A DNA stretch of 64,000 bases from Candidatus Enterousia sp. (GTDB lineage: Bacteria > Pseudomonadota > Alphaproteobacteria > Rs-D84). Numbering within the stretch: the first letter of the stretch is position 1; every line of letters begins with the position of its first letter. The notes under the pieces were generated by a model that did no database searches, had not been told where the DNA came from, and worked only from the letters and a program-made list of their open reading frames with translations. The stretch lies in contig JBGUKY010000017.1 in assembly GCA_045114635.1 (NCBI GenBank), forward strand, positions 4,687-68,686, in the 5' to 3' direction. Positions 743 to 4,409 of the stretch are shown here, one piece after another. The translations under genes and the position numbers were made by a program.

Positions 743-1321
743 TTTTGATTTTTGTTGTTGTAAATAATTTTGTAATAATTTGTAATATTCAGATGGCGAT
801 ATAACTGTGTCTTTGACACCATGACGAACGGTGCATTCAAAATTAAAATGCGTCATTAAATCACACAAAATCTTAACAGATGCCATATTTGCACGTTTAA
901 CGTCATATGGTTGACCATTTATGTCGTATTTGTATTCTATATCTACACTGGCACTTTTATTTACCCTTGTGTCACTTGGATGACTGAAACCGCCAAAATT
1001 AACACCAATATTATTAAAACAAATGTCAGTTAATTCTTTCATTTGATTCAATGTTTCTTTGTTTTTTATATATTGAGATTCAAAAAATACAATTGTGCTT
1101 TGCATCTGATTCACAGAGGAAGCAACCGTATTTATCCTCATTTGACCAATTGAATTCAAAATACCATATGAATATTGTGTTGTTTCTTTGTTGCCAACCT
1201 GGCTGAAAACTTGTGCCATTTCTGTTGATGACATTGGTTTTCCAGTTTGCATATTTAACATTGGTTTAATAAGACCTTTGCGTAATGATTGTGCAATACG
1301 TTGTGTTGAAAATTTTACCAT
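740..1321 (-). CDS. Hypothetical protein, last gene of the nrdD-nrdG transcription unit
   Basis: Long ORF. I prefer the internal ATG at 1321 (MVKFSTQ..) because GGGGGT lies 5 nt upstream. No recognisable motif. Confidence 0.45.
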   Translation of the reverse strand: MVKFSTQRIAQSLRKGLIKPMLNMQTGKPMSSTEMAQVFSQVGNKETTQYSYGILNSIGQMRINTVASSVNQMQSTIVFFESQYIKNKETLNQMKELTDICFNNIGVNFGGFSHPSDTRVNKSASVDIEYKYDINGQPYDVKRANMASVKILCDLMTHFNFECTVRHGVKDTVISPSEYYKLLQNYLQQQKSK

Positions 1322-1396
1322 TGTTACCCCCATTGTTTTTTGAAAATATAGCACAAAATACACATTTGTCAATATATTTTAACAACGGTAATAAAC

Positions 1397-1420
1397 AACC
1401 ACCCAAACGGGTGGTTTTTT
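1397..1420. terminator. Stem-loop between nrdG and the downstream ORF
   Basis: AACCACCC-AAAC-GGGTGGTT followed by TTTTTT. Confidence 0.4.
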
Positions 1421-2123
1421 AACTGTTTCGCCAAACCACAGTTTCAAACAAACTTTCTATTTTTTTCTTTAATTCTTCATCATTGAAAAACTGTTCCCTG
1501 TCCGCTGGCGTGGTCGCATGGCATTCACATTCGTGATATGGTGTGTATTTTTGCACTGCAAAATGTTTTACACCCATTGCTGATGCTGTTGTGGCTATTT
1601 CTAACAAATCTTCCTTGGATACATAACGCGGATCACATGTTGTACGTACTTCCAGTCCCCTGCCCGTTGATAACCAATATTGCAACGATTCAATCATTCG
1701 ATCATATGCGACATCAATACCTGTTAAATCTTTATAGTGTTCCTTGGTCGCCTTGAAATCCATCCCAACCCAATCAACAATATCAGAAACTTTTTTCAAT
1801 AAATCTGGATAAAAGCCGTTTGTATGTAAACCGATTGAAAAACCAAATTCTTTCACGCGTTTCATATAATCTATGGTGACATCTGCCTGCATCAATGCTT
1901 CACCACCAGAAAAGACTATACCCTCTAATTTCCCAACACGCGCCTTGATCCAATCAAATACTTTGTCTGGATCATATTCGCCCTGCTCCACAGCAATAAG
2001 ATGCGAATTCGAACAATATTCGCAATGCAGCGGGCAACCTTTGAGAAATAATACAGCGGCTAATTTCCCAGGATAATCAATAGTCGTAAAGGAAACTAGA
2101 CCGCCGATTTGTAAGTCTTTCAT
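1419..2123 (-). CDS. nrdG: Anaerobic ribonucleotide reductase activating protein (radical SAM)
   Basis: CPLHCEYCSN radical-SAM CxxxCxxC motif within GGLVSFTTIDYPGKLAAVLFLKGC. Located downstream of nrdD. Confidence 0.85.
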   Translation of the reverse strand: MKDLQIGGLVSFTTIDYPGKLAAVLFLKGCPLHCEYCSNSHLIAVEQGEYDPDKVFDWIKARVGKLEGIVFSGGEALMQADVTIDYMKRVKEFGFSIGLHTNGFYPDLLKKVSDIVDWVGMDFKATKEHYKDLTGIDVAYDRMIESLQYWLSTGRGLEVRTTCDPRYVSKEDLLEIATTASAMGVKHFAVQKYTPYHECECHATTPADREQFFNDEELKKKIESLFETVVWRNS

Positions 2124-2138
2124 AAATCACTGTCCAAA

Positions 2139-2318
2139 TTACGCGGCTTTTCTTAACAATTCTTCGTGACGAGCACCAGCAGTCAATGAGTTAGCTTCTG
2201 TAAATGTTTTTCTTTCACAGAATTCAGAATATTTACCAATGTTAAAGTTTTTAACTGGTCTGATATATCCCATCGAGCGTGAAAATGTTTCGCATGGTGT
2301 TCTTTGTTGTGGGTTCAT
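2139..2318 (-). CDS. 59-aa stand-alone glycyl-radical segment of class III RNR (below the ORF-track size cut-off)
   Basis: My translation is MNPQQRTPCETFSRSMGYIRPVKNFNIGKYSEFCERKTFTEANSLTAGARHEELLRKAA. RSMGYIRPV..N.GK..EF..R resembles the C-terminal glycyl-radical motif of NrdD. AAGGAGAG RBS upstream of the ATG. Confidence 0.6.
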   Translation of the reverse strand: MNPQQRTPCETFSRSMGYIRPVKNFNIGKYSEFCERKTFTEANSLTAGARHEELLRKAA

Positions 2319-2354
2319 AGTACTCTCCTTTCCTTTTTTTATTTTTTATTTTTA

Positions 2355-4409
2355 TTATTTGTGGTCGCCGCATTTGCATTGACAATCGTTGTTGTTTGCC
2401 GCAATTTCTGCATCACATTTCGGACAGAAATCGTGACGTCCTGGCAAATAGCCGTGTTTTGGGCAGATTGAAAATGTTGGTGTCAATGTCATATAAGGCA
2501 CTTTGTAATTTTCAAAGATTGTCCGAACAATTTTTTCGGCCGCTTCACCAGATGAAACTGGTTCGCCCATATAAAGGTGTAACATTGTTCCGCCTGTATA
2601 TTTGCGTTGTAAATCTTCCTGGTGTTCCAAAGCGACAAATGGGTCGTCTGTGAAATACACAGGTAATTGTGTGGAATTTGTATAATATGGTGCGTCTTCT
2701 GTTCCAGCAGTTAAAATGTCTGGGAAGTTCTTTTTATCTGTTTTTGCAAAGCGATAAGCACATCCTTCGGCTGGGGTTGCTTCCAAATTATACAAATTGC
2801 CTGTTGTTTCTTGGTAATCAGCAAGGTTTGTTCTGATGAAATCCATCACTTCCAAAACCAAGTTTTTACCAAATACTGTTGCGATATTATCTGAACCATT
2901 TGTGAAATTCATGACCATTTCATTTGCACCGTTAACACCGATGGTTGAAAAGTGATGATTCCAATTGCCCAAATAACGTTTTGTAAATGGATAAAGGCCA
3001 CGTTCCAAATTCTTGGAAATAATTTTACGTTTGATTTCCAAAGAATCACGTGCCAAATCAAGCAAACGTTTCAATTCGCGGAACAAACCTTCACGGTCAC
3101 CCTTGTGTGTATAGCCAAGACGTGCCAGATTAATTGTTACAACGCCGATAGAACCCGTCTTTTCAGCAGATCCAAACAAACCACCACCACGTTTTAATAA
3201 TTCACGAACATCCAAACGTAATCTGCAGCACATTGAACGTACGTCTGTTGGATTAAGATCGGAATTCAAAAAGTTTTGGAAGTTTGGAATACCGTATTTA
3301 GCAGCCAAATCAAACAAAGGTTTCACATTTGGATGTTCCCATGGAAAATCATCTGTGATGTTATATGTTGGAATTGGGAATGTGAATGGACGACCCATTG
3401 CATCACCTTCGGTCATAACTTCCAAGAATGCTTTGTTAATCATATCCATTTCTGGTTGTAAGTCACCATATGTGAAATCAACCATCTTTTTACCAACAAA
3501 AGGACGTTGTTCACGCAAATCTTTTGGACAAGTCCAATCGAATGTAAAGTTAATAAATGGTGTCTGGGTTCCCCAACGGCATGGTACAGAACAATTAAAT
3601 ACCAATGTTTGCATTGCATTTTTAACATCTGCATATGTTAAATTATCAACCCTTACATATGGGGCAAGATAAGTATCTACAGATGAAAATGCCTGGGCCC
3701 CTGCGAATTCGTTCTGTAATGTGCCCAAGAAATTCACCATATGAGAAATTGCAGTAGCCATATGTTTAGCCGGTGCACATTGTAAATATCCAGGAACACC
3801 GTTAAATCCTTCGTATAACAATTCACGCAAAGACCAACCGGCACAATAACCTGTCAACCAACCCAAATCGTGGATATGAAATGCGGCAGATTTATGTGCA
3901 TCAGCGATATCTTTTGGATACAAATTTAACCAATATTCAGCAGTCATACGTTCAGATGAACGCAAAATCAATCCACCAATAGAATAACCAATGTTTGCGT
4001 TTTCTTTTACGCGCCAGTCAGCTTCACTTACATAACCATCAATAATTTCAACCGCATCAACCAATGAATTACGGATTTCTGTACGTTTTTGACGATATAC
4101 TATGTAAGATTCTGCGGTCTTGTAAGCATGAGAATCCATAAGTGTTTGAATAACTATATCTTGGATATCTTCAACAGTTGGGATTTGCCCAGCATATTTC
4201 TTGTCTAATCTTTTTAATACATCTTGTGTTATCTTTACAATATCTGCATCAGATATTTCATGAGTAACCGCAACAGCCTTTTTGATGGCTTCAAAAATCT
4301 TTTTAGCATCAAACGGAACAGTTTCCCCCGAACGCTTTTTAATAGATTCCAATTCGCAAGTCAGCGTCGATATAACCTGAATCTTTGTTTCGTTTTTGTC
4401 ACCAGCCAT
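2355..4409 (-). CDS. nrdD: Anaerobic ribonucleoside-triphosphate reductase large protein (class III), apparently lacking the glycyl-radical tail
   Basis: N-terminal ATP-cone (KKRSGETVPFDAKKIFEAIKKA). Conserved NrdD core (GGLFGSAEKTGSIGVVTINL, YNLEATPAEG). C-terminal metal site CPKH..CPKC. Confidence 0.93.
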   Translation of the reverse strand: MAGDKNETKIQVISTLTCELESIKKRSGETVPFDAKKIFEAIKKAVAVTHEISDADIVKITQDVLKRLDKKYAGQIPTVEDIQDIVIQTLMDSHAYKTAESYIVYRQKRTEIRNSLVDAVEIIDGYVSEADWRVKENANIGYSIGGLILRSSERMTAEYWLNLYPKDIADAHKSAAFHIHDLGWLTGYCAGWSLRELLYEGFNGVPGYLQCAPAKHMATAISHMVNFLGTLQNEFAGAQAFSSVDTYLAPYVRVDNLTYADVKNAMQTLVFNCSVPCRWGTQTPFINFTFDWTCPKDLREQRPFVGKKMVDFTYGDLQPEMDMINKAFLEVMTEGDAMGRPFTFPIPTYNITDDFPWEHPNVKPLFDLAAKYGIPNFQNFLNSDLNPTDVRSMCCRLRLDVRELLKRGGGLFGSAEKTGSIGVVTINLARLGYTHKGDREGLFRELKRLLDLARDSLEIKRKIISKNLERGLYPFTKRYLGNWNHHFSTIGVNGANEMVMNFTNGSDNIATVFGKNLVLEVMDFIRTNLADYQETTGNLYNLEATPAEGCAYRFAKTDKKNFPDILTAGTEDAPYYTNSTQLPVYFTDDPFVALEHQEDLQRKYTGGTMLHLYMGEPVSSGEAAEKIVRTIFENYKVPYMTLTPTFSICPKHGYLPGRHDFCPKCDAEIAANNNDCQCKCGDHK

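Follow-up and report, generated by a model that had tools for sequence, protein, structure and literature searches.

A class III ribonucleotide reductase with its predicted glycyl-radical loop encoded by a separate small gene

The locus described here very probably encodes a class III ribonucleotide reductase made of two polypeptides, in which a small protein of 59 residues would serve as an obligate, non-covalently bound radical subunit activated by NrdG. In the window, by which we mean the whole 64,000-nt stretch of DNA that was analysed, the gene for the NrdD body ends just past its Zn ribbon. The segment that forms the glycyl-radical loop of one-piece NrdDs is encoded by a gene of its own, and nrdG starts 15 nt past the stop codon of that gene. 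All features of the locus are on the minus strand:

1397..1416, minus strand: terminator-like hairpin directly 3' of nrdG (consensus scan only)
1419..2123, minus strand: nrdG, radical-SAM activase, 234 aa (TIGR02495 NrdG2, E 7.9e-54, 181.9 bits against a cut-off of 131.15)
2139..2318, stop codon included, minus strand: gene of the 59-aa small subunit, MNPQQRTPCETFSRSMGYIRPVKNFNIGKYSEFCERKTFTEANSLTAGARHEELLRKAA, a homologue of the glycyl-radical loop at the very C-terminus of one-piece NrdD
2268..2270, minus strand: codon of Gly17, the predicted radical glycine, from the alignment with T. maritima NrdD
2319..2354, minus strand: A-rich spacer of 36 nt, holding two more TAA codons in frame and the Shine-Dalgarno sequence of the small gene
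2330..2323, minus strand: Shine-Dalgarno sequence of the small gene, AAGGAGAG
2355..4409, stop codon included, minus strand: nrdD body, 684 aa, including ATP-cone, ten-stranded barrel, finger loop and Zn ribbon
2358..2396, minus strand: Cys-rich tail at the very C-terminus of the body, NNNDCQCKCGDHK, beyond the Zn ribbon

The two parts of NrdD

The 684-residue protein matches positions 1-529 of the 562 in the Pfam NRDD profile (PF13597; 565.8 bits, cut-off 26.2), and the ATP-cone as well. Its best NCBIfam family, NF006126, is matched at positions 3-654 of 684 (1030 bits, cut-off 548), and its matches in the PDB are 8P23, 4COI and 4U3E. The finger-loop motif SMCCRL is present in the body, and M393, C394, C395 and R396 are invariant among 61 aligned bodies; in the same alignment C649, H652 and C662 of the Zn ribbon (C-x2-H...C-x2-C) are invariant and C665 is nearly so. 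This predicted ribbon aligns with the CEDGH...CPVC site of T. maritima NrdD. Just past it the chain reads ...SICPKHGYLPGRHDFCPKCDAEIAANNNDCQCKCGDHK and then stops. A reading of the DNA made earlier from its letters and open reading frames (the sequence-only reading) had stated that the protein ends after its metal site and has no radical motif; indeed, the NRDD match goes no further than position 529 of 562, and a motif scan found no R-x-x-G-[YF] anywhere in the 684 residues. Of 101 split bodies, 12 have a Cys-rich tail like that of the window, as do 12 of 125 small subunits.

The spacer, written with the flanking stop and start codons, is taa TAA AAA TAA AAA ATA AAA AAA GGA AAG GAG AGT ACT atg. 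The extra in-frame stops and the ribosome-binding site that had been read in it are both there: two TAA codons, which with the gene's own stop make three, and the Shine-Dalgarno sequence given above. TAA is the usual stop codon in the window, where 37 of the 45 open frames with 200 codons or more end in it. The ORFs of the body and of the small protein share one frame here, by chance.

The NRDD match of the 59-aa ORF covers positions 530-562 of 562 only, that is, the last 33 (E 5e-5), and in NF006126 the match is to positions 646-682 of 684. Taken alone, the small protein scores under the family cut-offs in Pfam and NCBIfam (22.6 bits against 26.2), and we therefore base its identity on profile position, motif conservation and context. 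Residues C9, R14, G17, R20, P21, N26, G28, K29, E32 and R36 do not vary across a diverse set of 34 small proteins, whose identity to that of the window is 39-57%. The sequence-only reading had taken this ORF, with nrdG 15 nt on, for the radical segment of the NrdD C-terminus, and alignment with a full-length NrdD bears this out. The NRDD profile aligns to residues 615-645 of T. maritima NrdD, and G17 falls on the G of RIVGYL, which is Gly621, the radical site of that enzyme (PMC4493059). The Gly_radical family of pyruvate formate-lyase and GrcA (PF01228) gave no match to the 59-aa protein at E≤1. The small gene is under purifying selection, with a dN/dS of 0.11 over 150 same-genus pairs (dS ~1.4).

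Two other features were considered for these proteins and rejected. A C-terminal '-AA' degron on the small protein is not a general feature, AA being the ending in just 9 of 125 representatives. Neither a split intein nor a trans-spliced protein fits the junction, which has no intein blocks and at which the tail of the body and the leader of the small protein vary in length and sequence; Pfam and NCBIfam profile searches found no intein or Hint domain in the 684-aa or the 59-aa ORF.

AlphaFold2 was run on a read-through pseudo-fusion of the two ORFs (TAA read as Q) with alignments of 61 and of 126 rows. The body was predicted with confidence, while pLDDT was below 50 in the finger loop and 29-74 in the radical segment, so that no docking was seen. 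At this low confidence the radical segment forms a beta-hairpin with G714, the equivalent of G17, at the turn.

The consensus scan placed the terminator-like hairpin after nrdG and none between nrdD and the small gene, a pattern suggesting a single predicted operon of nrdD, the small gene and nrdG.

Conservation and breadth of the split

The separation of body and small protein is found in all 29 relatives with data, which span four families of the order. In each of the 29 the body ends just after CPKCDAE or CPICDEE, and the small ORF is conserved beside it. The spacers measure 25-92 nt, with one of 421 nt, and the frame offset is 0, 1 or 2; GGAGG is kept 5-9 nt upstream of the ATG of the small gene. 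One relative (G025) has an inserted gene between body and small gene, where the window has none. The same short gene is present in 31 of 41 related genomes, and the small protein forms 254 stand-alone clusters of 54-92 aa, numbers well above what chance would give. A natural split, rather than a frameshift, had been proposed from the sequence, and these varied spacers and offsets agree with it, as does the occurrence of the split far beyond the window's genome.

In an even sample of the phylum, 15 of the 57 NrdD-bearing genomes, about a quarter, have the split form. Searching with the small protein gave 1036 cluster representatives at E≤1e-3, the best 150 of which are all 47-118 aa long. Its matches in species-representative genomes number at least 600, and 68 of the best 80 lie directly behind an NrdD body. 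Complete genomes and plasmids in RefSeq show the layout too. In Cupriavidus necator H16, pHG1 encodes a body of 676 aa together with a CDS of 66 aa and nrdG, and the nrdDG genes of this strain are reported as needed for anaerobic growth (PMC2864759). RefSeq labels the small CDS 'nrdD' in C. necator H16 and in Bradyrhizobium; in the window's lineage it is a 'hypothetical protein', and annotation treats the body by itself as the whole reductase. Records of Ralstonia (R. solanacearum), Paracoccus (P. denitrificans) and C. metallidurans match the small protein in sequence and carry no usable annotation. Our literature searches, whose scope did not include Siedow et al. (1999) on A. eutrophus nrdDG, found no paper describing a two-piece NrdD. 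The arrangement thus appears to be undescribed, as the sequence-only reading had supposed and in agreement with a 2026 review; RefSeq, however, already lists the small CDS under the name of the reductase.

One clade comprises 102 split bodies, with one apparent re-fusion (G120, L129) nested inside it, and this suggests that the two pieces are compatible with a one-piece enzyme. Apart from this case, the only clean fusions are outgroup forms. Frames of 715-798 aa in L043, L073 and L103 were rejected as fusions, being chance open frames in GC-rich DNA, as was L085, a frameshifted long-read MAG. No close one-piece relatives were found among the best 120 matches to a query of Zn ribbon plus loop, all of which are body-only chains.

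The small gene lies 9.5 kb from the body or is unlinked to it in some genomes, and it occurs alone in some bacterial genomes and in many phage contigs of a viral-contig collection; the GenBank phage collection gave only 2 weak matches to the small protein. A 93-aa ORF in G239 (103-aa open frame, NRDD 498-562), beside a complete NrdD, was examined as a true spare part and rejected as a C-terminal remnant of an E. coli-type NrdD; it is probably a gene relic.

The source organism is a small-genome gut bacterium, represented by a gut anaerobe-type MAG. Its genome has one NrdD locus, that of the window, whose NrdD has no radical domain, and no second NrdD. A search for PF02867 (class I and II reductases), positive in 12 of 14 known genomes used as controls, found none in this genome or in 24 others of the genus. 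Since class I and II reductases are absent from all 25 genomes, the two-piece enzyme would have to work, and it may be essential, as apparently the only source of DNA precursors in the genus. Essentiality is tempered by the 89.7% completeness of the window's genome and by the chance that so small a genome might salvage deoxynucleosides.

A proposed two-piece enzyme and its alternatives

We propose that the 684-residue chain would provide the ATP-cone, the catalytic barrel, the cysteine finger loop and the Zn ribbon, and that the 59-residue protein, translated separately from a strong Shine-Dalgarno sequence of the same operon, would provide the glycyl-radical loop, equivalent to the last ~35-40 residues of a one-piece NrdD. 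The adjacently encoded NrdG would take a hydrogen from Gly17 of the small protein. The latter would sit non-covalently in the barrel, where its glycyl radical would make a thiyl radical on the finger loop as in an ordinary NrdD. We infer assembly of the two chains, the action of NrdG on the small one and catalysis by the complex from sequence. We regard the small protein as the regular radical subunit because the body itself lacks a radical domain and no other reductase was found in the genome or genus.

A stronger form of this proposal is that the small subunit is an exchangeable cartridge, activated by NrdG off the body, reversibly bound, and replaced after cleavage by oxygen. We consider this conceivable but doubtful. 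Named matches include Cupriavidus, Paracoccus, Ralstonia, Bradyrhizobium and Castellaniella, among which are well-known aerobes and denitrifiers, and unlinked and phage-borne solo copies of the small gene occur. Furthermore, activation of the one-piece enzymes needs a large movement of the buried Gly loop (PMC4493059), which a separate chain would make trivial. On the other hand, the organism of the window is of the gut anaerobe type and its operon is tightly linked, and one lineage has apparently re-fused the two pieces with no obvious loss. We are equally tentative in suggesting that such a diffusible cartridge might be discarded after oxygen cleavage and that the phage copies, which come with neither body nor activase, might load or re-arm the reductase of the host in the course of an infection.

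The sequence-only reading had offered two roles for the small protein, action in trans or service as a spare part like GrcA/YfiD, and the evidence separates them. A spare part would only rescue an enzyme whose own radical domain had been cleaved by oxygen. Like GrcA, the small protein is a free-standing glycyl-radical segment, and its gene is found solo in some bacterial genomes and many phage contigs; but the body here has no radical domain to lose, the genome has no second NrdD to be rescued, and the small protein does not match the family of PFL and GrcA. We therefore think a mere spare very unlikely, and action in trans is the role that stands.

It is even less likely that stop-codon read-through or ribosomal frameshifting yields a one-piece NrdD, with no separate translation of the small ORF. 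Body and small ORF do share a frame in the window, as in a small number of relatives (G018, G022, G005 and G040), but in the window three in-frame TAA codons, its ordinary stop, would have to be passed, and most relatives have an offset of +1 or +2. With spacers of up to 92, 221 or 421 nt, and a small gene 9.5 kb away or unlinked in some genomes, no single mechanism fits, and a canonical Shine-Dalgarno sequence and ATG are always there. Finally, an artefact or decaying pseudogene, that is, a one-piece nrdD broken by assembly or sequencing error or by recent mutation, is conceivable from two window ORFs in one frame with just 36 A-rich nucleotides between them, but has almost no probability left given a split in 29 of 29 relatives with differing spacer lengths and all three frame offsets, its presence in complete RefSeq genomes and plasmids, a dN/dS of 0.11, a conserved Shine-Dalgarno sequence and ATG, and its position as the sole reductase of the genus.

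Comparison with known systems and implications

One-piece NrdDs with their NrdG (T. maritima 4COI/4U3E, subclass NrdDh; phage T4 1H78; Prevotella copri 8P23) have the same barrel and ATP-cone as the enzyme of the window, the same double-Cys finger loop SMCCR, Zn ribbon and radical-loop sequence, and the same NrdG2-type activase. They differ from it in having the Zn ribbon and the Gly loop on one chain; in the window the chain is interrupted between the two, and the radical loop is a gene product of its own. To our knowledge, all studied NrdDs, and indeed every studied glycyl-radical enzyme, carry the radical glycine on the catalytic chain.

GrcA/YfiD of E. coli and Y06I of phage T4, which serve pyruvate formate-lyase, are likewise small free-standing glycyl-radical segments and are also found solo in phages. 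However, GrcA is the PFL-type domain PF01228, absent from the small ORF of the window, and it backs up an enzyme with its own radical domain, whereas the small protein of the window is the only radical domain. The class I reductases (NrdAB) also keep a stable radical on a separate small subunit (beta) and perform the chemistry in the large one (alpha). Their small subunit, a ferritin-like metalloprotein that holds a tyrosyl or metal radical and relies on long-range transfer, is unrelated to the ~60-residue peptide loop of the window, which would have to insert into the barrel. The class I reductase of Aeromonas phage Aeh1, whose nrdA is split by a homing endonuclease, is reportedly functional as an assembly of two catalytic-chain fragments made by separate translation. 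There a mobile element has recently interrupted the body itself, whereas the split described here is of old date, runs through a whole clade and removes precisely the radical module.

A split NrdD matters for annotation, given the labels that the small gene carries and the listing of the body as complete. The detached loop also bears on how the buried loop meets the activase, and on whether proteins like spare parts exist outside PFL; in a review of June 2026 such proteins are known only for formate lyases and the wider question is undetermined. As C. necator H16 and Bradyrhizobium have the split form, existing strains allow tests of whether NrdG activates a free ~7-kDa substrate, whether docking is reversible and whether oxygen damage is repaired. 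If the small subunit were indeed an exchangeable cartridge, only ~60 residues would have to be remade after oxygen damage. Pyruvate formate-lyase would then no longer be the only glycyl-radical enzyme known to have a spare-part-like system, and the small subunit would offer a natural test of the model in which activation requires the radical domain to move out of the barrel.

The nrdD cluster and its small protein

Three ORFs lie consecutively on the minus strand of the window:

4409..2355, minus strand: nrdD body (684-aa ORF)
2358-2396, minus strand: Cys-rich C-terminal tail of the body, NNNDCQCKCGDHK
2318..2139, minus strand: small gene (59-aa ORF)
2123..1419, minus strand: nrdG (234-aa ORF)

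The body contains an ATP-cone, and its closest solved structures are NrdD from Prevotella copri and from Thermotoga maritima. It matches positions 3-654 of the 684 in NCBIfam NF006126 (1030 bits) and 1-529 of the 562 in Pfam NRDD, ends in ...SICPKHGYLPGRHDFCPKCDAEIAANNNDCQCKCGDHK, and nowhere in its 684 residues contains R-x-x-G-[YF]. The 59-aa ORF aligns to the last 33 positions of NRDD only (530-562, E 5e-5) and to positions 646-682 of NF006126. Within the 36-nt spacer (taa TAA AAA TAA AAA ATA AAA AAA GGA AAG GAG AGT ACT atg) are two extra in-frame TAA codons and AAGGAGAG; nrdG (TIGR02495) starts 15 nt past the small gene. A terminator-like hairpin lies 3' of nrdG, and none was found inside the cluster. 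The sequence-only reading (a body without a glycyl-radical motif, extra stops in the spacer, a 59-aa extreme C-terminal segment, nrdG 15 nt downstream) was correct in all its sequence statements.

Comparing 34 diverse small proteins (39-57% identity to the window's), we observed that C9, R14, G17, R20, P21, N26, G28, K29, E32 and R36 are invariant. Aligned to full-length T. maritima NrdD, the small-protein profile covers residues 615-645 and places G17 on the G of RIVGYL. This is Gly621, the radical site, which is buried in the barrel and whose activation is thought to require a large movement (PMC4493059). Judged by this homology, the small protein is the glycyl-radical loop of NrdD.

We also observed that Cys-rich extreme C-terminal tails recur at the free ends made by the split (12 of 101 bodies, including loci L134-L136, L141, L022 and L056; 12 of 125 small proteins, including L057, L058 and L079). 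Body tails elsewhere read QKQQCCGACGG, QQSCCA and KKCMCCDDC, and one small-protein tail, ...ESKCGCGDHK, has an ending identical to that of the window's body. By analogy with the C-terminal Cys pairs of class I/II RNRs, these might be redox-shuttle or metal tails.

Breadth and history of the split

Searched exhaustively with phmmer, 1.84 billion cluster representatives gave 1036 matches (E<=1e-3). All of the best 150 measure 47-118 aa; among the best matches, 125 of 149 have the full core motif in at most 100 aa, and two are fragments from the C-terminus of one-piece enzymes, which carry the radical loop on the catalytic chain. The motif CE[VI]WTRVM was matched at least 600 times in species-representative genomes; at the best 80 of these loci, the small gene lies directly 3' of an NrdD body in 68 (gap -14 to +221 nt, frequently an ATGA overlap), lacks a body out to 3.5 kb in 11, and belongs to a frameshifted MAG in one. 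The hosts are mainly Burkholderiales (Castellaniella, Sutterella, Massilia, Janthinobacterium, Acidovorax, Alcaligenes), with Acidithiobacillus, Alphaproteobacteria and Elusimicrobiota. Matching plasmid or chromid records number 161, with Ralstonia, Bradyrhizobium, Cupriavidus and Paracoccus among them. An even phylum sample of 401 genomes held 57 with NrdD, 15 of them (26%) split.

RefSeq annotation already makes the split visible: C. necator H16 pHG1 carries a 676-aa 'ribonucleoside triphosphate reductase', a 66-aa 'nrdD' and an activase, with profile coordinates identical to the window's, and Bradyrhizobium is annotated similarly. The passage on NrdDG in the C. metallidurans genome paper (PMC2864759) gives Rmet_5137 and Rmet_5139, skipping 5138, and cites work in which pHG1 nrdDG was required for denitrifying growth. 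The RNR-family analyses consulted describe the radical domain as C-terminal, and a June 2026 review knows spare-part proteins for formate lyases only, their existence elsewhere being undetermined. Searches confined to open full-text literature turned up no account of an NrdD divided in this way. Given the RefSeq annotation and this scope, we regard the split as a widespread variant that has been overlooked, rather than as a novel type of system.

For many split bodies from betaproteobacteria (Castellaniella, Janthinobacterium, Alcaligenes), alignment to the window's body begins only at its residue ~117. These bodies, L044, L045, L053, L066, L075, L076, L080, L082 and L089 among them, have no ATP-cone, so loss of activity regulation varies inside the split clade.

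In a FastTree phylogeny of 108 bodies, for which one-piece rows were trimmed of their radical segment, all 102 split bodies form one clade (SH-like support 81), with the window's genus as its deepest branch and one-piece enzymes as sister and outgroups. We read this provisionally as a single origin, because the tree is a quick one with long outgroup branches. Genome G120 has a clean one-piece enzyme (linker ...CDEEAKAAGRYDPDNRQACEVWTRVMGY...) nested among split alphaproteobacterial bodies, most simply a re-fusion.

Two other NrdD variants were seen. At L127 (G239:C2), 2949-3230 encodes a 93-aa ORF ending ...RRICGYLGSPDTRPFNAGKQEEVKRKVKHL, a remnant of an E. coli-type Zn-ribbon plus radical loop. 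The intact NrdD of that genome belongs to a different type; the remnant is probably left over from gene replacement, though it may be a true spare part. In G034:C62:1186-4353 (same order as the window, family f2), an additional 1193-aa NrdD-like frame matches NRDD positions 2-250 and 275-541 with ~500 aa between, which looks like an intein-type insertion; the contig may be a contaminant.

The small gene also occurs without a body. Relatives are encoded on 347 viral contigs, and for 77 of the best 80 the retrieved flanks contain no NrdD body and no NrdG (35 of these 77 have 2.5 kb or more on each side); neighbours on three examined contigs are tape-measure, tail-fibre and primase genes. On L163 (IMGVR_UViG_3300045988_068991, 1270-3497) it lies immediately 3' of a pair of radical-SAM genes (phrog_1802, E 3e-17 and 8.5e-53), which do not match NrdG at 1e-8 and might encode a phage-specific activase. 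Solo small genes of bacterial genomes have ordinary chromosomal surroundings. Unlinked copies lie between uvrD and a rubrerythrin gene (L091 and L102, 3706-4239) and, in Sutterella (L050/L051/L067), between a phosphoribosyltransferase gene and M20 peptidase/DcuC genes; in G417 the small gene is 9.5 kb from the body.

A proposed two-chain enzyme and its alternatives

A read-through pseudo-fusion of body and small protein, folded twice, gave a confidently predicted body in both folds; the radical segment formed a low-confidence hairpin with the glycine at its turn, and the finger loop was also uncertain. From homology, we infer that the small protein docks in the body barrel. The likeliest reading, which we hold with considerable confidence, is an obligate two-chain enzyme, in which Gly17 of the small chain would receive its radical from NrdG and that chain would sit in the barrel where one-piece enzymes have their C-terminal loop.

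Several split-bearing hosts are well-known aerobes and denitrifiers. Their possession of the split, and the solo and phage copies, would fit a less likely reading, namely that a small chain damaged by oxygen is swapped for a fresh one and that host bodies can be loaded with phage copies; the close linkage of the operon in the window's anaerobe-type genome and the re-fusion in G120 speak against it. Of the two roles first proposed, the in-trans subunit survives as the two-chain enzyme, whereas the analogy to a GrcA-like spare part fails at the window locus, where the body has no radical domain of its own that a spare could replace.

In 22 of 25 same-genus genomes the small gene occurs as a short open frame (in two of the other three a contig end truncates nrdD, and the third gave no nrdD match); three further families of the order have it too. 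In all 29 relatives with both genes readable, the body stops right after CPKCDAE/CPICDEE and GGAGG lies 5-9 nt upstream of the small-gene ATG. The spacer is 25-92 nt long, or 421 nt in G025 (L024, same order), where an extra ORF of ~115-120 aa with its own SD (MALKEVTVDGEVRERDREFKKYTNHHFEVGSWKTT...) lies between body stop 3133 and small-gene ATG 3557. The frame offset is 0, 1 or 2, and the shared frame in the window is therefore coincidental. The small gene's 54-codon core has a dN/dS of 0.11 (150 same-genus pairs, dS ~1.4). Recoding into a one-piece product is contradicted by the offsets, by the GGAGG and by TAA, an ordinary stop here since it ends 37 of the window's 45 long frames. The split's presence in every readable relative, the variable spacer and offset, and the dN/dS dispose of an artefact, upholding the earlier view that this is no simple frameshift.

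Neither the window's genome nor any of the 24 others of the genus has a member of PF02867, the class I/II large-subunit family, in a search positive in 12 of 14 control genomes, and the window's genome has a single NrdD locus. Given this genome's completeness (89.7%) and very small size (0.87 Mb), the organism could depend on salvage; even then, selection on both genes argues that body and small gene are functional.
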